IMG/VR virus record: IMGVR_UViG_3300028888_000086
DNA length: 64,000 bases
Reading direction: 5' to 3' (one strand)
From: a virus
Taxonomy: Duplodnaviria; Heunggongvirae; Uroviricota; Caudoviricetes
Shown here: one piece after another, positions 6,572 through 46,815 of the stretch
Position numbering within the stretch: position 1 is the stretch's first letter
Layout: each line of letters begins with the position of its first letter
Program-made: the position numbers and the translations under genes
The notes under the pieces: generated by a model
Databases searched by the model: none
What the model saw: the letters and a program-made list of their open reading frames with translations, nothing else
What the model was told of the DNA's origin: nothing

Positions 6572-6919
6572 TTATACTAATGATTTTATATTGATTTGTT
6601 TATACTCACAATCAACTGAATTAAAGAACTCCTCTAATTCATTCTTTATTTTATCTTTTATATCCCTAGCAGCAACATACTCACTCATAGGTAATTCTCC
6701 ACTACATCTTATAAATGCACTATAAGATACTAAATAATTATACGTATCTTTTAATTGATATATAACTAACTTTACAGAAAATCTATCATATTTTTCTGGT
6801 ATACTATTCTTTAAAGTTTCGTATAATATATCTCTGGCTTTTGTAATACTTGGATCTAAATTGTCTTCTAATATGTTGTAAGGAATTTCATAAGATAATA
6901 AAATTTCAAAATAATTCAT
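6572..6919 (-). CDS. hypothetical protein between rpoC and rpoB
   Basis: 115-aa ORF in RNAP operon context. Confidence 0.5.
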   Translation of the reverse strand: MNYFEILLSYEIPYNILEDNLDPSITKARDILYETLKNSIPEKYDRFSVKLVIYQLKDTYNYLVSYSAFIRCSGELPMSEYVAARDIKDKIKNELEEFFNSVDCEYKQINIKSLV

Positions 6920-10814: not shown

Positions 10815-11120
10815 CATACAAAACATTGAATATTCCGAAAAATACTTATATTTTCATATAAGACTAGACTATATCATCATCTATATTTCAAGATGGACTG
10901 CGCTTCAAAAATAGGAATTTCACCTATTTCTTACTCCATATAGGATAGTCGTTACACCTTTTTTGATTTATAATTTCAAAACTTGGCTCGGGATTGCCAT
11001 ATTATATTTCTATAACTTAGGTTTCCCCGATAGCAGAGATTTTATTTTCTCCACACCTAGCATTTACTAGTTCACAGTCTTTGCATTATAAGATCGCTCT
11101 TATAAGTCACAAATTTCTTT
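10815..11120 (-). mobile_element. group I intron A of rpoC (family 1, no ORF, ~306 nt)
   Basis: R GGUGUAACGACUAUCC (~10943-10958) and S GAUGAUGAUAUAGUCUAG (~10867-10884) are present. The 5' exon ends CAU (U). The intron ends UGUAUG. Confidence 0.7.
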
Positions 11121-13678: not shown

Positions 13679-14088
13679 GGCGGCATGTTGGAATTGGTAG
13701 ACAAGGCGGTCTTTTTGCCAATTAGACAAACAAAAGAGAGTGCATAGGTAAGAAATTCCTATGTAGAACCTCTCAAATTCGGTGGAAGTCTCTATGAGAA
13801 AATACCGAGCTAAATCAGATTTAATTCTGTAAATGTGTAGAGAGCAGAAGGGAGGTACCTAAGTTGAGAAAAGCATTGAGTATGACGGTAGTGCGGAGGT
13901 GTCAGCCTCAGGATTGGTTCGACTCCAAAATGCTGAGTTGCAACTTTTTCAATATGGTAATGGTGTGCTCCAGACCACAACAACACAATTAGTCGCCAAG
14001 CGTCTGAGAAAGTTGGCTATGGTAACATAGTGTGGTAGGAAAAACCGCTCCCAATTATGGGGTCCCAGTTCGACTCTGGGTGTCGCTA
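13679..14088 (+). tRNA. tRNA-Leu(UAA) interrupted by a 326-nt group I intron between U34 and A35 (exons 13679-13713 and 14040-14088)
   Basis: 5' exon GGCGGCA TG TTG GAATTGGTAGA CAA G GCGGT CUU. 3' exon AAAA ACCGC, long variable arm TCCCAATTATGGGG, T-arm CCCAGTTCGACTCTGGG, acceptor TGTCGCT (two G.U pairs with GGCGGCA). The intron ends ...GUAGG. Confidence 0.75.
13714..14039 (+). mobile_element. group I intron (family 2) in the tRNA-Leu(UAA) anticodon loop
   Basis: Canonical cyanobacterial/plastid trnL insertion site. The 5' exon ends in U and the intron ends in G. It has internal P7-like pairing UUCGACUCC / UUAGUCGCC, and shares AAUACCGAGCUAA with the AAA+ ATPase intron. Confidence 0.65.
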
Positions 14089-14136
14089 CAAAAGAGGTGA
14101 AAAATCCTCTTTTATTTTTCCGTCTATAAATCCTTA

Positions 14137-14369: not shown

Positions 14370-15989
14370 ATGGAAATATTAATAAATAATTCAGAATTTA
14401 AATTAACAGAAATTAATTATTTAGATCTTAATGATGTTAAAAATAATGGATCTAAATTAGAAAATTATAGATATTTAAGTAAAGGTATTATTAGTGGACC
14501 AGCTGATAATACAGATATTTGGACTTATAAAACATTTGGTGAAATTTTAATACCTATCAATATTTATAAAACTCCAGCTATATCTAAAAATAAATATTTT
14601 ATAATTGAAAGAGGGAAAACTAATATAGTTGATAAAGATTATACAAATGAAGAAATTAGTATAATGTCAGGTATAGCAAGAGCTCTAATACTAGAAAATA
14701 AATCTAAATTAACTATATATAGAAAATTAGAATTATTAGAAGGATTATTAAGATCTATAGGAAGAGTTACACCATTAAAAGAATTTTATACGTTTGGTGA
14801 TAGGCTTGATAATACTTATCAAAGTATCATTAAGTCTTTAGAGATAAATAATTTACTAAAAGATAAAAAAATAGATAAGAGATCACTAAGTTATCCATTA
14901 TATAGAGGGGGTAAGCGTTATAGTATCTATGAATTAATAAATGATTTAATAGAAGATAAGTCATTCATTTTAGATACTAAAGATTTCAAACTAGTATCTT
15001 CTAAAACTATCAATGAAAAAGTAAATACGAAAAGAGTTTCTGATGAATGGTGTAGAATAATAGGAAAAACAGGAAATAAAACAAGAGCTAATATGTCTAT
15101 AGATTTTTTAGCTAATATTCTTGTTGAAATTCCTGAAAATAATGTAGGAATTGAACCTGGAAAAATTATACATGTTACAGCTCCTAGAAAAATTTGTATT
15201 ATAAGAGATGGATTACTTATTAATTCAAAATTAATTATAAAAGTTAATTCAAAAAAATTACAACAAAAATTAGTTGGTGCTAGAATAATAAAAGAGAGAT
15301 TGTTGTATAAAAATGAATTAGTACTTGATCTTACAAAACTTCCTATAATTAATAGGAATAAGCTTAAAGTTGATATATTTGATGTAGCCCAAACTGAAGT
15401 AAGGTATACAATGTCAAGTATCGCATGTGAATATTTAAAAAGAAGAATTTACATGAGAGATAAAAAAGTATCAACTTGTCCCGAAAGATTACCAAAACCA
15501 AAAAAGAGTGACATAGAGAAATATCTAGAAAACTTAGGAATATACGGAAGTAGCTTATGTCCAACTAAAGTAAAGACAGAATCAAACTCTACTTACCTAG
15601 TTAATGAAGTGAGTGGAAAGATTTATGATATGACAAGTAGGTATTACTCTGATGAAGTATATTATTACTTTAATAATATTAGTAAGTGTAATCAAGTAGT
15701 GAAGGATTTCTTAATAGAACTAGATAATTGTTTAAAAACCAACTCATTAGATGAATTAAATGAGGTATGGAGTAAAAAACATAAAGAATATGAAAAGAGG
15801 TTAAGAGATTTAAAATTTAGATTATTATTCGGTAGAACATTCAATTTTAAATGCACTACTAATCAAAAAAAGGTGGACTACTCTTTATACTTTAATAAAG
15901 TAAGTGTTCCTATTCCATTAAGTAATAAGAGTGTATCAGTTGGTTGGAAATTTGAAACTAAAAACGCATATAGTTATGATTTTAGATAA
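14370..15989 (+). CDS. hypothetical protein (539 aa)
   Basis: Long ORF preceded by CCTTATATGTG motif at ~14338. Confidence 0.6.
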   Translation: MEILINNSEFKLTEINYLDLNDVKNNGSKLENYRYLSKGIISGPADNTDIWTYKTFGEILIPINIYKTPAISKNKYFIIERGKTNIVDKDYTNEEISIMSGIARALILENKSKLTIYRKLELLEGLLRSIGRVTPLKEFYTFGDRLDNTYQSIIKSLEINNLLKDKKIDKRSLSYPLYRGGKRYSIYELINDLIEDKSFILDTKDFKLVSSKTINEKVNTKRVSDEWCRIIGKTGNKTRANMSIDFLANILVEIPENNVGIEPGKIIHVTAPRKICIIRDGLLINSKLIIKVNSKKLQQKLVGARIIKERLLYKNELVLDLTKLPIINRNKLKVDIFDVAQTEVRYTMSSIACEYLKRRIYMRDKKVSTCPERLPKPKKSDIEKYLENLGIYGSSLCPTKVKTESNSTYLVNEVSGKIYDMTSRYYSDEVYYYFNNISKCNQVVKDFLIELDNCLKTNSLDELNEVWSKKHKEYEKRLRDLKFRLLFGRTFNFKCTTNQKKVDYSLYFNKVSVPIPLSNKSVSVGWKFETKNAYSYDFR

Positions 15990-16593
15990 TGTAAATAAAA
16001 TAGTAAATTTATTAGATTTTAATAGAACAATTAAATTTTATTATCTCGAAATTATACAGAGAAAAAAAGATAACTCGAATATAATAAAAGATAGAAAAAT
16101 ATATCAAAGATTTATAGTTAGTGCTGAAGAATTATATAAAAATTTAGAAGATATTAAACTATTGTGTAAAGTTTATAATGCTAGGGCTTACATTAGTTTA
16201 ATTGCAAAATCTAATGAAAAATTTACTAAAGAGTGTTTAAAAGCATATACAGAAAAAGTGTGTTCTAATAATTATAGTAATACATTTTTAATTCCAGAAA
16301 AAATAGTATTATTACCTCAATGTAAATGTGGTAATGGGGAGGAATTTTGGATTCTTGATGTAGACATAAAAGATATAGACTATATAAATAAACTTAAAGA
16401 AACTATCGATAAAAATTTAGTAACTGTATATGAAACTCTAAACACTCCAAACGGTTATCATTTAGTAGTTGATACTTTTAATTTAAAACACAAAGGTTTA
16501 ATATATCTTCAGGATGATAACTATGTGTTTGAAAACTTTAAATTTACATTAAGACGGGAGGCATTAACTATACTATATGCAAATATTAATTAG
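15931..16593 (+). CDS. hypothetical protein (true start probably at the internal Met MILDNVNK, ~15976)
   Basis: ORF overlaps the upstream gene end. Confidence 0.5.
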   Translation: MYQLVGNLKLKTHIVMILDNVNKIVNLLDFNRTIKFYYLEIIQRKKDNSNIIKDRKIYQRFIVSAEELYKNLEDIKLLCKVYNARAYISLIAKSNEKFTKECLKAYTEKVCSNNYSNTFLIPEKIVLLPQCKCGNGEEFWILDVDIKDIDYINKLKETIDKNLVTVYETLNTPNGYHLVVDTFNLKHKGLIYLQDDNYVFENFKFTLRREALTILYANIN

Positions 16594-16637
16594 ACTTGAA
16601 ATTCTTATATATGATACATACTTAAATTTAATATACT

Positions 16638-17141
16638 ATGAGTGTAAATGTAAAAATGAAAAGAGTTTACGTAAAATTGAAGAATGGAGAAGAAAGACCT
16701 CTTGAATTTTATCAACCTAATATAGCTGAATTTGATGAAAATGGAAATTTAAAGTTTATATGTGATGGGGGTTGTTCATATTTCAATATCTGTCCTAAAT
16801 TAAGAGACCCAAGAAATCCAGATGATCCGGATTTATGTTTCATAGATTTTTGTCAGGATTTAGGTTCCGATGACGATGGAAATAGAACAGACTTTTCTAA
16901 TATGTGTCCTGTTGATGGAACTATAGAAGCAAATTTAGGAGATCAACTAGATATATTTCAAAATATTATAAAAACTAATCCTTTCATCAGAGTCACGGAT
17001 GTAATTGAAAAAGTATGTAAGGGAGAAGATGAATTTCCTAATTTTTCATGTTATAATGAAAAACATACTAATTGTCGTTATACTAATGATATGTGTATAT
17101 TAAAATCATTGTTTCCTAAGAGCAAAGTTAAAAATGAGTGA
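16638..17141 (+). CDS. Cys-rich hypothetical protein
   Basis: 167 aa with multiple C pairs (CDGGCSYFNICP, CFIDFCQD). Confidence 0.5.
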   Translation: MSVNVKMKRVYVKLKNGEERPLEFYQPNIAEFDENGNLKFICDGGCSYFNICPKLRDPRNPDDPDLCFIDFCQDLGSDDDGNRTDFSNMCPVDGTIEANLGDQLDIFQNIIKTNPFIRVTDVIEKVCKGEDEFPNFSCYNEKHTNCRYTNDMCILKSLFPKSKVKNE

Positions 17142-18021
17142 CTATTTTTCTAATATTAATGAAGAAAAACAGTTTATACCGCCAGATTATAGTGTAGATT
17201 CAGAATCAGAAGAAAAAGAGAGTGAGGATAATATAGATGATTTAGATGAAGAATCCATAACCCCATTTGATGAAAGTGAAGAAGAAGAATTATTAGATTA
17301 TTTACATGGATCTGAAGATAAAAAAACTAAAAAAGAGGAAAAGGAGGAAACTATAATGACAACATCTCCATTTTCAGCTACACCATCAACAACTCCTTCA
17401 TGGGGTGGTTGGGGAAATACTCAACAAAATAATGGAGGAAGTTTTTGGAGTAATACTCAACAAAGTAAATCAAGTTGGGGTGGATTTGGATCATTTGGTC
17501 AGTCAACAACAACCCAAAAAGAACAAATAAATAGAAATAAAAAGGTAATATTTTGTGATTTTTTAGATTGTATTGTAGAGACTTGGCAATCAAATGGTCA
17601 ATCTGGATTACTTCCTAGAGATATATATGATTTAAAACCTAGATTTGAAGTTTGGGCGAAATTAGCAGCTTTTAATCCAGAAAAAATATATATAATTGTT
17701 CCTAGGAATTTATTACCCTCAACAAATGGACCTGATGCTTGGACTATGACATTAAATTATTTTTGCTGTAGTTTAAGTTCATTTATAAGAGTTCCTTTCA
17801 ATTGTTGTCAAATACTAGTTCAACAAATGCTAGGACAACCAAAAGAGTCTATAATTCAATCTATAATAAATTTTCCTAATTTTCCTGTTAAAAAAGAAGA
17901 AATAATTTGTATAGGAATTTATTCGGGAGAAAATGGACAAAGTAATAGAGATATACTTGCAGCTAATTTATGTGGATTGGATTATGTAGATCTAAATAAG
18001 TTAATAAATAATATGTATTAA
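17134..18021 (+). CDS. hypothetical protein with acidic N-terminus and S/T/G/W-rich low-complexity linker
   Basis: TTPSWGGWGNTQQNNGGSFWSNTQQSKSSWGGFGSFG region; start overlaps the upstream stop. Confidence 0.5.
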   Translation: MSDYFSNINEEKQFIPPDYSVDSESEEKESEDNIDDLDEESITPFDESEEEELLDYLHGSEDKKTKKEEKEETIMTTSPFSATPSTTPSWGGWGNTQQNNGGSFWSNTQQSKSSWGGFGSFGQSTTTQKEQINRNKKVIFCDFLDCIVETWQSNGQSGLLPRDIYDLKPRFEVWAKLAAFNPEKIYIIVPRNLLPSTNGPDAWTMTLNYFCCSLSSFIRVPFNCCQILVQQMLGQPKESIIQSIINFPNFPVKKEEIICIGIYSGENGQSNRDILAANLCGLDYVDLNKLINNMY

Positions 18022-18045
18022 TACTAATTAAAATCAATTTAAATC

Positions 18046-18354
18046 ATGATTAAATCTGATAATTACAAATTAAAATGGATTGATGAAGGAGGTATATTTT
18101 TCCCAGTTAATGGAAATACTATATTACATTCATCATTAGGTCCTGGTGTCTGGAAAGTTGTACCTAGTCCTCGTATGAATGATGGAAGATTAGGACTAAC
18201 TAAAGTATGTGATAAATTTGAATTCGAATACAAAATTTATGACATAGGAAATAAAAGCTTCAGAGATAAAGTTATTAATGTCTGGAATTCTGATCTGTTT
18301 ATAGAAGATGGAAGAAATTTAGGCATAATAATGAATGGAACAAAAGGAACGGGT
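18046..18354 (+). CDS. AAA+ ATPase exon 1 (ends ...NGTKGTG, first half of Walker A)
   Basis: The ORF ends exactly at GTKGTG-stop and the exon ends in U (GGU). Confidence 0.7.
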
Positions 18355-18616
18355 TAAATAAATAGCCCTTCTTCTAAGGAATTAGAAGAATTTTTAAGGA
18401 ACGAATTCGGTGAAGGCTGTGATGCTAATACCGAGCTAACAGAAATAATTACGTAAGGTATTTCTGTAGTGTAGAGCATAGTAGTTGAATAAATATAATA
18501 CTACCAAGAGCGCTCCTTACCCCAACTGAAATAAGTGGGTAAAAATATATGCCGAGCTTATAAGAAGAAGAATTATAAGAGTCTAGGGATAAAAAGCTCT
18601 AGAGATAACAAAACTG
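18355..18616 (+). mobile_element. group I intron (family 2) splitting the P-loop codons of the AAA+ ATPase gene
   Basis: Joining the exons gives GTKGTG|KTVSAKLLCNELNMPVLIVDSDF, i.e. GxxGxGKT. The intron contains AAUACCGAGCUAA and CCGAGCUUAUAAG, shared with the trnL intron, and ends ...AACUG. Confidence 0.65.
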
Positions 18617-19549
18617 AAAACCGTATCAGCTAAACTTCTCTGTAATGAACTTAATATGCCTGTATTAATTGTTGATAGTGATTTTGAAGGTAGAATCTTA
18701 GAATTTATACAAAATTTAGATTATGAATGTGTAGTTCTTATTGATGAAGCCGAAAAAACATTTAAAGACGAAAGAGATAACAGTGAAGTTTTATTGAAGC
18801 TTATTGACGGAATATATAATAGATCCAGAAAATTATATATTCTCACTACTAATAAATTAACTGTAAATGAAAATTTATTAGGAAGACCAGGTAGAATCAG
18901 ATATATACAAGAATTCAATAATCTTGATCCTAAATTGATATCACTGTATTTAGATGACAATTTAAAGGATAAAGAAAAGAAACAATACGTAACTGAAATT
19001 GTAGATCTTTTAGAAATCTCAACTATCGACATTCTCAAAAATGTTGTAGATGAGGTTAATATGTTTGGTGAAATTCCTGAAGATTCGCCAATGAATATTC
19101 CAAGAGGTAAGTACGTATTTGATATTCTTAAATTGTGGGGTTGTACCGAAGATGATATTCCAGATGTTAAAAAGTTTCTGGATAAACATAAGACTTCTGG
19201 AAAATCGTTATATGAATGGTTATATAATAAAGCAAATGATGAAGATCTTCCAGAAGAATATAAAGATACAGAAGATAACTACTACAATTATGAACTTCTA
19301 AGAAATGAATTTGGATATACCAATAGTTGTACATATTCTACAATAGATAAACTTTCTACAAAGTATAGTACAATGTGGAAAGACTGTGATACCTCTATAG
19401 GTAGAGTATTAACAGAACCAGATGCATTCCATAAAGAAGGTGGAGATTATAATTTTATGCTAATTGAAGGGAGATATGATAAGGAAGTTTATCTTTGCGT
19501 ATTACTAAAACAAAGAAAATCTCCAACATTATATCATGGAGTATATTAA
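18617..19549 (+). CDS. AAA+ ATPase exon 2 (Walker B VVLIDEAE, sensor-1 TTN, Arg finger RPGRIR)
   Basis: Classic AAA second region of homology LLGRPGRIRY. The frame is open upstream of the annotated Met back to 18617. Confidence 0.75.
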   Translation, partial: KTVSAKLLCNELNMPVLIVDSDFEGRILEFIQNLDYECVVLIDEAEKTFKDERDNSEVLLKLIDGIYNRSRKLYILTTNKLTVNENLLGRPGRIRYIQEFNNLDPKLISLYLDDNLKDKEKKQYVTEIVDLLEISTIDILKNVVDEVNMFGEIPEDSPMNIPRGKYVFDILKLWGCTEDDIPDVKKFLDKHKTSGKSLYEWLYNKANDEDLPEEYKDTEDNYYNYELLRNEFGYTNSCTYSTIDKLSTKYSTMWKDCDTSIGRVLTEPDAFHKEGGDYNFMLIEGRYDKEVYLCVLLKQRKSPTLYHGVY

Positions 19550-19561
19550 AAAAAAGAAAGA

Positions 19562-19592
19562 AGAGTAGAATTATTCTACTCTTTTTATTTTA
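19562..19592 (+). terminator. hairpin AGAGTAGAATTATTCTACTCT plus T-run
   Basis: Inverted repeat followed by TTTTTATTTT after the gene end. Confidence 0.6.
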
Positions 19593-19609
19593 TGTGTCGA
19601 AAAAAAAAG

Positions 19610-19737
19610 AGAAGGTGTCAAAACCTGGGTATATACCCAACCTTCTCAATAGACCTTAAAACCGTCACGGTAAAATATTCTTACCCATTTTAAAGATTAT
19701 GAAACACTCCACATTTATTTCATATATAAGGCTTTGA
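19610..19737 (-). ncRNA. candidate ~110-nt small RNA on the minus strand (promoter at 19721-19737, terminator hairpin GAGAAGGU...ACCUUCUC plus U9)
   Basis: Orphan minus-oriented promoter motif with no ORF downstream (only a 7-codon MGKNILP). Palindromic loop GGGUAUAUACCC. Confidence 0.4.
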
Positions 19738-19763
19738 AGGATTAAAAAAGAATGGGAGATGTT

Positions 19764-22739
19764 TCACTCCACATTCTTTCTAAGATCCATAAGTATGTTA
19801 TCAGTAAACTGCTCAATACTAGAGCTAATATTTTCTGTTTCTTCATTATAGAATCCACATAAAATTTGTTCTGATAATATTCTTTTAGTTCTTATAAAAT
19901 CAAATCTTCTTTTATCCCAAGACCAATTTTCATCAGACTTTAACTGAATTACGACTTGTGGAATATAGACGTTTATCTCTGAAAATTTAGATCCACGTCT
20001 AGCTATTCTCCCAACTAACTGCACATAATCAGCATTAGTCCACGGTAAACTTAAGATTACTATTTTATTACAGCATTTTTGAAGTCCATCAATACCGGTT
20101 CCAATAGGGCTAGATGCAATAATAATATCACAATCTCCACTAATGAATTTATCCTCTAGTATTGAATTTCTATCTTTTACATCAACTTCTCCAGTATATA
20201 TTTCATAGGTAAATCCTTTTTCTTTTACCCACGACTCAATAATTGGAATAGATAACGTACTAATACTATAAATAATAGTTTTAGATTTAATTTCATCTTT
20301 AACTGAATCAAGTTTAATTCTAGTTAAGGCTTTATCAACTGTACTCCATGACATCTTATCTTGACTTATAAGACTGCTTTTAATATCAGTTCCATTAACT
20401 TCATTAAAATATGTATTAGTCTTTATGTCAAAATCAGAATTTCCAAAGATTCTAATACCGTTTTCAAATAACTCATACCTAGCAAGAACTTTATTTTTTA
20501 TAGTCCTGTTTCTAGTTTTGAATTTAGGATTTACACCACTAAGTAATCCCAAGACTGAATGAAGCTCAGTTAGGTCATTCTTAAAAGGTGTTGCTGATAA
20601 TCCTAAGACCTTGAGTTTTGGATTGTGTTTTTGTGCTTCCATTCTCATAATCTTTAGATATCTGTAAGTATTAGACTCTTTTGAATCTTCCATCTTTTTT
20701 GCTCTCTGTATTTCATCAAGTACTATAAAATCAACCATACCAGATTTAACTAGATTCATTATAGGTTCCTCTAAAATATCAGAAGTCCTAAATTTATCAT
20801 AGTTAATCAAGATATAATTAAATTTGTTCTCATCTATAGCATCAAGACAATTTTTATTTCCATTATAATCAATTACTATGCTATCTTTTTTATAGCATTT
20901 CTTTATTTCTCTTTTAACTGTATCTTTAACAGACAAAGGAGAAACATATATAGTAATTCTCATTCTGGAATATCTTGAAGCATACAGAGCACTTAATGTT
21001 TTACCACTACCAACTTCGGACCAGTTTCCAAAATACGGAGTCCTATTTAATTTATAAGCTACGTATTTTTGAAGTAAATCAGGTCTTAATGTATCTGGTA
21101 AACAATATATACAGGTAGTATCAAGATTAAAAACTTCATTGTACTCTCCTAATACAATTTCTCTTATCTCCCACAACCAATCTGAATGTTCAGATTTCTT
21201 TAATGATTTTAATTCTTCGATTGTAATATATAAATTGCTATAAGAGTCATTAATTATCTCTTGCCAAAAATCTTTGACCTTCTTTACTTTAAGTAGATCA
21301 TATAATTCCCCACTTAAAGTAATATTAGCAAGTATTTTTTCAAGAGTAAGCACGGTTTTCATACATCTAGAAATGCCAAATATTTTTTCTCTTTCTGGCA
21401 TCTCATAACCCAGATCCTCAGCTAATCTTCCTATAGTATCTCTTCTGTTCTGAGTATCTATTTCCGTTGATGCTATCTTATCTATAGCACTTCCAGAACA
21501 CTCAAGACCCAAAAGAACTAAATCATCAAAATCAAGATATTCAAAATCAAAAATTGTAATATCCTGAAGTCTTGGATCCAGGTTATATATAGGACCTTCT
21601 TTATATTTTTCTATCAGCTCTTTGAATTTAGGTTCATTTTTATGTACATAGAGAAAATTGTATAATCCAATTTCCTTTTTATTAGAGGGTTTAGGAAGTC
21701 TATTGTGTTTTATACAAAATTCTTCCAATTCTTCATATGTATAGTGGTTAAATCTATCATATTTTTCCCACAGTTCCTTAAATCTAGGTTCATTTTTATG
21801 CTTTCTAAAAAATTGATATAAACCAGTTTCAGTTTCCCCTCTATACTGACTAGGAAGTCTATTATTCTTTTTACAAAATTCTTCCAATTCTTCATACGTA
21901 TAATAATGAATTTTATTATATTTTTTATATAATTCTTTAAATCTTGGTTCATTTTTATGCTTTCTAAAAAATCGATATAAACCACCTTCTTCTTTATATT
22001 CACTACTTGGAAGTCTATTATGTTTTATACAAAATTCTTCCAATTCTTCATACGTATACTTCTTATCAGATTTACCATATTTTTCTATTAATTTCTTAAA
22101 CCTAGGCTCATCTTTATCTCTATGATAAACTAGAAATTGATATAATCTAATTTCTTCTTTATCAGAAGATTTAGGAAGTCTATTGTGTTTTATACAAAAT
22201 TCTTCCAATTCTTCATACGTATACTTCTTATCAGATTTACCATATTTTTCTATTAATTTCTTAAATCTAGGCTCATCTTTATGTATTCTAAGATATTGAT
22301 ATAGACCTTTTTCACTATATTTAGGAAGTCTATTGTGTTTTATACAAAATTCTTCCAATTCTTCGAATGTATTAAAATGATAGAGCCTGTGGAGTTTACC
22401 ATATTTTTCTATCAATTTCTTAAACCTAGGCTCATTTTTATGTATTCTAAGAAATTGATATAAACCAGTTTCCCCTTTATTTTTATTTTGTGGAAGTCTA
22501 TTATTCTTTTTACAAAATTCTTCCAGATCTTCATATATATATTTTTTATGGATTTTACTATAATTTTCCCACAATTCTTTAAATCTTGGTTCATTTTTAT
22601 ATTTCCAAAAAAATCGATATAAACTGCTTTCTTCTCTATACTTTTTTTGTGGAAGTCTATTATTCTTTTTACAAAATTCTTCCAATTCTTCATACGTATA
22701 AATTTTACTTTTGTTTCTTTTTTCTTCTTTGTTTTTCAT
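19764..22739 (-). CDS. SF2 helicase with 9 N-terminal ~45-aa tandem repeats (helicase-associated 'HA'-domain-like)
   Basis: Repeat YTYEELEEFCKKNNRLP...GLYQFL..HKNEPRFKELxEKY occurs 9 times. Helicase motifs GSGKT (I), VLDEIQ (II), GLSATP (III), GTGIDGLQ. Confidence 0.8.
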   Translation of the reverse strand: MKNKEEKRNKSKIYTYEELEEFCKKNNRLPQKKYREESSLYRFFWKYKNEPRFKELWENYSKIHKKYIYEDLEEFCKKNNRLPQNKNKGETGLYQFLRIHKNEPRFKKLIEKYGKLHRLYHFNTFEELEEFCIKHNRLPKYSEKGLYQYLRIHKDEPRFKKLIEKYGKSDKKYTYEELEEFCIKHNRLPKSSDKEEIRLYQFLVYHRDKDEPRFKKLIEKYGKSDKKYTYEELEEFCIKHNRLPSSEYKEEGGLYRFFRKHKNEPRFKELYKKYNKIHYYTYEELEEFCKKNNRLPSQYRGETETGLYQFFRKHKNEPRFKELWEKYDRFNHYTYEELEEFCIKHNRLPKPSNKKEIGLYNFLYVHKNEPKFKELIEKYKEGPIYNLDPRLQDITIFDFEYLDFDDLVLLGLECSGSAIDKIASTEIDTQNRRDTIGRLAEDLGYEMPEREKIFGISRCMKTVLTLEKILANITLSGELYDLLKVKKVKDFWQEIINDSYSNLYITIEELKSLKKSEHSDWLWEIREIVLGEYNEVFNLDTTCIYCLPDTLRPDLLQKYVAYKLNRTPYFGNWSEVGSGKTLSALYASRYSRMRITIYVSPLSVKDTVKREIKKCYKKDSIVIDYNGNKNCLDAIDENKFNYILINYDKFRTSDILEEPIMNLVKSGMVDFIVLDEIQRAKKMEDSKESNTYRYLKIMRMEAQKHNPKLKVLGLSATPFKNDLTELHSVLGLLSGVNPKFKTRNRTIKNKVLARYELFENGIRIFGNSDFDIKTNTYFNEVNGTDIKSSLISQDKMSWSTVDKALTRIKLDSVKDEIKSKTIIYSISTLSIPIIESWVKEKGFTYEIYTGEVDVKDRNSILEDKFISGDCDIIIASSPIGTGIDGLQKCCNKIVILSLPWTNADYVQLVGRIARRGSKFSEINVYIPQVVIQLKSDENWSWDKRRFDFIRTKRILSEQILCGFYNEETENISSSIEQFTDNILMDLRKNVE

Positions 22740-22816
22740 AATTTTTTTAATTTTAATTGTTAATACTTGAAAATAAAAACAAGTAAATAGGATTTTATTA
22801 CCTATTTACTTCTCTA

Positions 22817-22833
22817 CATATATAAGGCTTTTA
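22817..22833 (-). promoter_or_regulatory. promoter motif (minus orientation) for the 991-aa helicase gene, followed by 5'-UTR hairpin GTAAATAGG...CCTATTTAC
   Basis: ACATATATAAGGCTTTT; divergent with the plus-strand motif at 22887-22904. Confidence 0.55.
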
Positions 22834-22923
22834 AGAATTATTAAATGGAATTTCTGAAATGCTTAAAACACGCTTAAAACGGTTAAAAATTCTTATATAT
22901 GTAAATATTAAATTTTATTAATT

Positions 22924-46529: not shown

Positions 46530-46815
46530 AAGTAAAATTGTGGCATACTGAAGTAATTTAGTATGAAAAAGATTGTGAACTCATATATGTGAGGTGTCTA
46601 AGAAAATAAAAAATCTTAGGCTAACGGTAAAAGCTAAGTTAGAAATAATATGCTAATACCGTGCCAAGTCAGAAATGAAAGGTGTAGAGACTATCCTTTA
46701 TGGAGTAGGTTTATAGTGAAATTCTATATTCCGAAGTGCAATCCATCTTGCAATATAGATGATGATATAGTCCAGCTCTAATGGAAACATTAGGAGAAAG
46801 CGGATTCTAATACTT
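46530..46815 (+). mobile_element. group I intron 2 of polA (family 1), inserted inside motif C between His and Asp
   Basis: The 5' exon ends CAU. R GGUGUAGAGACUAUCC (~46678-46693) and S GAUGAUGAUAUAGUCCAGC (~46759-46777) are nearly identical to rpoC intron A. The 3' end is approximate. Confidence 0.6.

Follow-up and report, generated by a model that had tools for sequence, protein, structure and literature searches.

At positions 18,046 to 19,549 of the 64,000-nucleotide phage sequence IMGVR_UViG_3300028888_000086 (the window, by which we mean the whole stretch that was analyzed) two open reading frames (ORFs) follow each other on the same strand, and the question is whether they represent two genes or a single gene that has been interrupted. 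The public gene calls on the 98-kb source contig list two separate ORFs here, of 103 and 297 amino acids. An earlier reading of the letters alone (the original prediction) instead placed a group I intron in the middle of the Walker A codons of an AAA+ ATPase gene (GTKGTG|KT). Our analysis points to the same answer: judged from the sequence, it is very probable that 18046-19549 is a single phage AAA+ ATPase gene, homologous to the replication-block ATPase of the crAss-like phages and split by a group I intron of 262 nucleotides (nt) that carries no ORF, and that this intron is competent for splicing and restores one ATPase. The predicted intron is borne out by its core fold and the covariation in it, by its exact absence in relatives, by the selection acting on the exons and by an intron at the same site in a crAss-like phage. 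The gene is composed as follows.

18046..18354, + strand: exon 1, 103 codons ending in ...NGTKGTG, final base U18354 (from the ORF list and the alignment with uninterrupted homologues)
18355..18616, + strand: predicted group I intron, 262 nt without an ORF, 5' end UAAAUAAAUAGCCC, 3' end ...GAUAACAAAACUG, with G18616 as omega-G
18617..19549, + strand: exon 2, KTVSAKLL... through the stop codon; holds the Walker A Lys-Thr, Walker B, sensor-1 and the Arg finger

The upstream ORF (18046-18357, + strand) ends in ...IIMNGTKGTG followed by TAA, as can be seen both in the sequence and in the ORF list and as the original prediction had it. The frame of the downstream ORF (18656-19549) reads KTVSAKLLCNELN from 18617, and ...KALEITKL KTVSAKLLCNELNMPV... 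when the residues ahead of it are included. This frame had been described as open up to 18617; homology does resume at exactly that position, but the open frame itself runs back to 18593, with the preceding TAA at 18590-18592, and 18617 is thus a homology boundary and not the limit of the open frame. When 18046-18354 and 18617-19549 are joined, 309 and 933 nt combine in phase to encode 413 amino acids, and Walker A reads G98-T-K-G-T-G103|K104-T105 with the insertion in phase 0 between Gly103 and Lys104. The expected GxxGxGKT is thereby restored, and the joined protein matches the Pfam AAA family (PF00004) over residues 95-203, spanning the junction, with 46.2 bits against a cut-off of 21.2. 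Walker B (D146 E147), sensor-1 (T180, N182) and the Arg finger (R193-P-G-R196/R198, RPGRxR), all three of which had been pointed out beforehand, are invariant across 23 aligned homologues, and one AAA domain with Walker A, Walker B, sensor-1 and Arg finger is found in the spliced product only. More than 1000 homologues were returned by a database search; the full-length ones have about 400 residues, are 45-53% identical and read NGTKGTGKTVSAKLLCNEL without interruption. An uninterrupted orthologue, about 47% identical to the window ATPase, is also encoded by some 45 phage contigs of 200-400 kb. The joined ATPase matches PHROG 2376 'ATPase' with E = 5.6e-47, and a sequence search of the PDB returned no relatives. 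As far as pattern scans go, a terminator-like hairpin with a T-run lies at 19558-19586 (+), just 3' of the stop codon, the sole 'terminator' flagged within the gene is the P1 helix of the intron, and the scan found no promoter-like site inside the intron.

Could the gene be permanently split, with the 103-residue N-terminal fragment and a C-terminal fragment (started at ATG 18656 or elsewhere) translated apart and assembling into a split ATPase, and with the spacer being an intergenic insertion? We consider this very unlikely, even though the public gene calls correspond to exactly these two ORFs. The stop codon of exon 1 comes from the insert itself. The break lies inside Walker A, and the C-terminal product from the first ATG at 18656 (M117) lacks K104-T105, so that neither fragment has a P-loop. 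Furthermore the fused protein is encoded in closely related genomes and, unlike an intergenic region, the spacer is selected for a ribozyme-type RNA fold (both points are taken up below).

The limits of the insert could be read from alleles that lack it. Three intron-less alleles (L179, L178 and L003; 88-91% protein identity) are without precisely 18355-18616 and read GGN|AAR ACN GTG at the site, namely GGAACGGGT|AAAACTGTG in L003, GGAACAGGA|AAGACC in L178 and GGAACGGGA|AAAACC in L179. The last of these is a syntenic phage contig of 379,862 nt, which aligns to window positions 15032-18353 and 18617-19744 at 82-83% identity with the 262 nt missing. Since these empty alleles fix the boundaries independently of the reading frames, the insert is 262 nt long, preceded by U18354, has G18616 as its last base and is not flanked by a target-site duplication. 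This agrees with the predicted spacer of 262 nt that ends in G and follows an exon ending in U. The intron is polymorphic among closely related jumbo-phage genomes: at alleles of 84-94% identity it is present in the window, L001, L004 and L259-L270 and absent from L003, L178 and L179. The final exon-1 codon is GGT in all intron-bearing alleles and GGA in two of the intron-less ones, and the Thr codon before GGT varies among the intron-bearing alleles (ACG, ACT or ACA).

At least 24 contigs encode an identical 103-residue exon-1 product, and the exon-intron-exon layout was recovered from at least 10 independent samples and three data sources. The recovery of this layout on independent contigs, together with the allelic variation of the intron and the intact flanks, leaves next to no probability that the split gene is an assembly artefact or a chimera formed through repeated intron sequence in the metagenome, although one related contig, L261, is indeed chimeric. 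In L261 (ENA ERZ28653696 scaffold_39497, ~1810-2100) exon 1 and the 5' half of a window-type intron are joined to the 3' half of another intron, which differs in P3', P8 and P9, and unrelated sequence follows downstream; the junction reflects either mis-assembly via the core that the introns share or a genuine recombination event between the copies.

Selection on the exons was quantified as the ratio of nonsynonymous to synonymous substitution rates (dN/dS) by comparing the window with L001, another allele that bears the intron. The ratio is 0.059 for exon 1 (dS 0.62) and 0.069 for exon 2 (dS 0.99), values that indicate strong purifying selection on both exons among alleles that have the intron.

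Structure prediction of the intron, which had been named as a way to check the original prediction, gave a group I core that includes the P3/P7 pseudoknot and is backed by covariation. Pairs were scored in two alignments. One contains six relatives in the form of compact copies (the window, L001, L018, L040, L086 and the crAss-like phage cr6_1), and the other contains 73 distinct sequences found with R1, a covariance model of the intron core that was built from relatives and has 100 matches in 99 sources. The paired (P) and joining (J) elements, all on the + strand, are these.

18351..18368, +: P1, GGGU|UA (18351-18356) with UAGCCC (18363-18368); U18354·G18365 wobble at the 5' splice site, G18365 lying in the internal guide sequence; read from the sequence and the minimum free energy (MFE) fold
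18369-18377 with 18382-18390, +: P2, GGAA loop; 8 of 9 pairs compensatory (six relatives)
18395-18400 (UAAGGA) with 18514-18519 (UCCUUA), +: P3, forming the pseudoknot with P7; 3 of 5 tested pairs compensatory and 90% of cells paired (six relatives)
18407..18466, +: P4-P6 domain, including the shared motif AAUACCGAGCUAA at 18427-18439
18407-18411 with 18430-18434, +: P4, covaries in the 73-sequence set
18415-18417 with 18424-18426, +: P5, covaries in the 73-sequence set
18440-18447 with 18459-18466, +: P6, 8 of 8 pairs compensatory in both alignments
G18474, bulged A18475 and 18476-18479 (G[A]GCAU) with 18549-18553 (AUGCC), +: P7
18481-18485 with 18500-18504, +: P7.1, between P7 and P3', with the conserved 14-nt loop UGAAUAAAUAUAAU; 4 of 5 pairs compensatory (six relatives) and 5 of 5 (73 sequences)
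18519/18520-18522 with 18537-18540, +: P8, in both alignments
within 18514..18553, +: J8/7, AAAAAUAU, between P8 and P7' (18549-18553)
18557-18563 with 18573-18579, +: P9, 5 of 7 pairs compensatory (six relatives)
18582-18588 with 18597-18603, +: P9.1, loop AUAAAAAG; 5 of 7 pairs compensatory (six relatives)

In the six relatives the hand-drawn structure, including the P3/P7 pseudoknot, has 96% of the cells paired and 39 of 59 pairs double-changed; none of 500 shuffles reaches any of these measures, and controls with slid partners are 33-42% paired. The 73 sequences behave similarly, with 93.7% of the cells paired and double changes at all but one of the 31 core pairs (slid controls 30-41%). 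The core of the window intron scores 186.5 bits against R1, and its fold is more stable than that of shuffled sequences (MFE z-score -3.4). Within P7, GC/AU and AU/GC exchanges are seen at two pairs in the six relatives, and four of the five pairs are compensatory in the larger set. One G-C pair is invariant at columns 114/192 of the six-relative alignment, in the geometry G[A]GCAU/AUGCC, and by analogy G18476-C18552, beside the bulged A18475, would be the guanosine-binding pair. J8/7 and P7' align to the AAGAUAUAGUCC element of relatives that are recognised by the Rfam model RF00028. The position of the P7.1 hairpin between P7 and P3' suggests an IA-like trait; a second hairpin between P7 and P3' is absent in the window copy, and some relatives, such as L015, have extra pairing there. 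The intron thus belongs to a large family of phage group I introns with an IA-like architecture. The changes between alleles follow the same helices. The window and L001 introns are 91.6% identical, with differences that are mostly paired changes in P2, P7.1 and P9.1, and in the divergent same-site alleles L268 and L269 P5 has changed from GGC/GCU to UCC/GGA and P6 from CAGAAAUA/UAUUUCUG to CUAAAAUA/UAUUUUAG, in both cases compensatorily.

These results bear on the proposal that the insert is a decayed remnant that no longer splices, which would make the ATPase a pseudogene in the window phage. Every core helix is intact, the differences between intron alleles are compensatory and the split allele is widespread across samples, and a dN/dS of ~0.06 over a dS of 0.6-1.0 between two intron-bearing lineages is unexpected for a pseudogene. 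Set against this, the absence of an endonuclease ORF, the short P1, the missing Rfam match and the dispensability of the intron in relatives leave decay only a slim chance. The pattern of change in exons and intron, as far as sequence comparison can tell, speaks for a ribozyme that works and a gene that is spliced and functional, and not for a pseudogene.

The ends and the frame of the insert also speak to whether it could be an element of another type, i.e. a group II intron, an intein or a segment skipped by translational bypass as in T4 gene 60. For a group II intron there is a weak and partial Rfam match (group-II-D1D4-1, E = 2.8, 15 bits where the gathering score is 35), but the 5' end is UAAAU and not GUGYG, and domain V and a reverse-transcriptase ORF are absent. 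An intein is impossible because the first codon of the insert, read in the exon frame, is TAA, with further stops after it. For bypass, 262 nt is far above the known lengths, and the group I covariation would go unexplained. We regard it as hardly conceivable that any of these applies.

Several observations weigh against a splicing group I intron. RF00028 (Intron_gpI) does not match the window copy, even when the cut-off is relaxed from the gathering score to E <= 10. P1 contains four exon pairs only, and three in alleles with ACU or ACA before GGU; by eye no P10 pairing with the 3' exon could be found. No endonuclease gene is apparent, since 18355-18616 holds no + strand ORF of at least 40 amino acids. 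The six-relative structure was drawn from the very sequences on which it was scored and the 73-sequence alignment was fitted to a model, so both are biased toward structure, although the slid controls are far lower. If the JGI sample behind L003 (3300037684) is a metatranscriptome, L003 would be spliced RNA rather than an empty allele, which would still support splicing. Finally, splicing at this locus is argued from sequence.

The Rfam result deserves further comment. A scan of the window and of 18250-18750 returned no group I match, and weak matches to snoRNA, lncRNA and group II models (E = 0.75-8.9) were taken as chance. Five relatives found with R1 (L006, L007, L035, L044 and L050) reach 59-82 bits against RF00028, where the gathering score is 50, and the intron family is therefore tied to curated group I introns. 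The nearest relatives of the window copy (L040, L018 and cr6_1) stay below RF00028 even at E <= 10. By R1 matches there are four group I introns within the window, and RF00028 missed them all. Standard Rfam screening thus overlooks this intron plus three others in 64 kb, and it follows that the intron loads of AT-rich gut phages are likely undercounted by standard pipelines.

Among GenBank phages, blastn with the intron found cr6_1 over all 262 nt at 73% identity. When 8 kb of the window was searched by megablast, the cr6_1 intron was the sole match, and the window phage is therefore not in the GenBank phage collection. Between gp44 and gp42, the RefSeq record of cr6_1 has the annotation 'intron-encoded endonuclease'. 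A contig from the window's own lineage, L266, has an ORF at the same site, starting right after the first ten bases of the intron; the contig ends within this ORF, the N-terminus of which resembles the cr6_1 endonuclease (E = 1e-6). The co-existence of ORF-bearing, ORF-less and empty alleles points to the usual life cycle of a homing intron. Lacking an endonuclease ORF the window intron cannot home by itself, and it probably came via endonuclease-mediated homing of an ORF-bearing relative that was followed by loss of the ORF.

How the intron would work can be outlined. The primary transcript would fold into the group I core, and the 5' exon end GGGU would pair with the internal guide GCCC to form P1 with U18354·G18365. 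An exogenous guanosine, bound in P7 by G18476-C18552 beside the bulged A18475, would attack after U18354; omega-G18616 would then take the same site in P7, and the freed 3'-OH of exon 1 would attack after G18616. Ligation of GGU to AAA would restore GTKGTGKT and thereby the 413-residue ATPase. In an unspliced transcript, exon 1 would stop at UAA, the first codon of the intron, and no product with a P-loop would be made. Anatomy, covariation, boundaries and exon selection were established in the analysis; as regards catalysis, we infer a guanosine-initiated two-step transesterification from the intron family.

A bolder reading can also be formulated. The compact ribozymes related to the window intron could constitute a structural subclass of their own among the group I introns, one not described before and recognizable by the single P7.1 with loop UGAAUAAAUAUAAU, the P9.1 loop AUAAAAAG, the 3' tail GAUAACAAAACUG and a diverged P7 that escapes RF00028. 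They would move between unrelated phage orders (crAss-like and jumbo) via the P-loop codons of a shared replication ATPase, and copies without an ORF would persist not as inert passengers but because splicing controls the production of the ATPase or influences how co-infecting phages compete. Taken as a whole, we find this reading improbable and put it forward as speculation.

The wider family was collected by pattern scans of viral contigs. Other members interrupt dUTPase-like, ribonucleotide-reductase-activase-like and polymerase-like exons (assigned by eye), ribonucleotide reductase at NPCG|EQ, and tRNAs. Since tblastn of the ATPase against the family loci places these members in different genes, the family is not confined to this ATPase. 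Of the eight viral matches from the first pattern scan, half were chance matches inside coding sequence, and the second scan also caught unrelated coding matches, e.g. L024, L027, L032 and L042. In the viral contigs L033, L035, L038 and L050, introns of the same family sit in tRNA anticodon loops within large phage tRNA clusters, and several of these pass RF00028. One 157-kb viral contig with a group I intron of the family, L022, also carries a type III hammerhead ribozyme at 6582-6637 (-) (RF00008, 52.1 bits, gathering score 48.5). Staphylococcus phage matches annotated 'ATPase (x2)' were considered as a homologous split gene and rejected, as there are two overlapping ORFs, as expected from a frameshift rather than from an intron. 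In the Staphylococcus phage S-CoN_Ph12 (OR354835; L131) a distant ATPase homologue at 1495-2603 is annotated as the overlapping coding sequences 1495-2004 and 2001-2603, which a frameshift or a sequencing error fits and an intron does not.

Turning to the other introns of the window, the original prediction also held that the spacer shares sequence with an intron in a tRNA-Leu gene. This is indeed the case: the window contains the 13-mer AATACCGAGCTAA at two positions and no others, 13801 and 18427, and R1 matches the tRNA-Leu intron at 13768-13854. An alignment of the two introns with MAFFT came out of register and was replaced by motif comparison and the covariance model. A 326-nt member of the intron family occupies 13714-14039 and splits the tRNA-Leu(UAA) gene (13679-14090, +) between U34 and A35; it has UUCGGUG...AAUACCGAGCUAA...GUGUAGAGAGC in common with the ATPase intron. 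The classical tRNA-Leu intron of cyanobacteria and plastids is inserted at the identical position. The split gene escapes both ARAGORN and the Rfam tRNA model, and once the intron has been removed in silico it is called as tRNA-Leu(taa) by ARAGORN.

A group I intron of a second sub-family, missed by Rfam, is located at ~10830-11105 (-) with its R1 core at 10863-11041 (AAUCCCGAGCCAAG ... GGUGUAACGACUAUCC ... GAUGAUAUAGUCUAG). It directly follows the codons ...INRPPTLHKE, which look like a conserved motif of the RNA polymerase beta' subunit. The fourth intron, at ~46540-46800 (+) with its R1 core at 46613-46776 (AAUACCGUGCCAAG ... GGUGUAGAGACUAUCC ... GAUGAUAUAGUCCAG), closely resembles it. Downstream of the ATPase gene, ~3.1 kb of the window (19745-22853) is missing from the syntenic contig L179 and looks like a strain-specific insertion. 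The ORF at 19764-22739 (-), 991 amino acids long, has by eye about eight tandem repeats of ~45 residues (YTYEELEEFCxKxNRLP...EPRFKxL) followed by helicase-like motifs (GSGKT, DEIQ).

Recognition of the intron turns two unrelated hypothetical ORFs into a conserved, replication-associated AAA+ ATPase. The homing site lies in the most conserved codons of a gene, those of the P-loop, and two phage groups that differ widely share it. With its ORF-bearing, ORF-less and empty alleles, the locus is a convenient one in which to follow how uncultured phages gain and lose introns. The knowledge of how such introns work is unchanged by this case.

It remains to compare the locus with known systems. The classical phage group I introns are those of T4 (td, nrdB and nrdD) and of the Staphylococcus phage Twort, which belong to subgroup IA2. 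They are self-splicing, as is predicted for the window family, which they resemble in their location at highly conserved critical codons and in an extra pairing between P7 and P3', and some of them are without an ORF. They differ in carrying P7.1 plus P7.2, where the window family has only P7.1, a hairpin with a conserved loop of 14 nt, and we know of no sequence similarity between the two beyond the core motifs. A difference from the 200-400 kb phage contigs mentioned above is that their ATPase orthologues are all uninterrupted.

The closest parallel is cr6_1 (NC_055894, Suoliviridae). Its ATPase is homologous (E = 8e-26) and aligns with that of the window residue by residue across the junction, and its insertion point GTKGTG|KTV is identical, cr6_1 reading ...AGTKGTG|KTVMAK... 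at the site. The ribozyme core is homologous as well (175.8 bits with R1), and the 3' tail GAUAACAAAAUUG is common to both introns. In contrast to the ORF-less window copy, the cr6_1 intron is ~1.1 kb long and has a LAGLIDADG ORF (PF14528) before P2. Its P7 is A[C]GCGU/ACGCU, and its host is a crAss-like phage of ~97 kb and not a jumbo phage.

Group I introns have been reported in the AAA ATPase gene ATP_43b of the crAss-like delta group (Yutin et al. 2021, PMC7886860). These are the same kind of element in the same family of replication-block ATPases, in gut phages of Bacteroidetes-type hosts, and the host of the window phage probably belongs to the Bacteroidales. The introns were identified via endonuclease domains, a search that ORF-less copies escape, and the text consulted gives no description of their insertion site or ribozyme structure. 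As for large phages, the jumbo gut (Jug) phages are stated to contain 2513 group I introns in 136 genomes, with a mean of 18.5 per genome and ~206 nt each, and splicing was seen in metatranscriptome reads for 37 of 76 introns (PMC12880540). These gut jumbo phages are AT-rich and measure 360-402 kb, and numerous short introns split their essential genes (PMC12880540), comparable to the four introns in 64 kb of the window and its syntenic relative of 380 kb. The targets named in the text of the paper are terL, nrdD and DNA polymerase, and not this ATPase (PMC12880540). Both the mechanism and the gene target thus already have precedent, and what is new is an unannotated, ORF-less copy in a jumbo-phage lineage.

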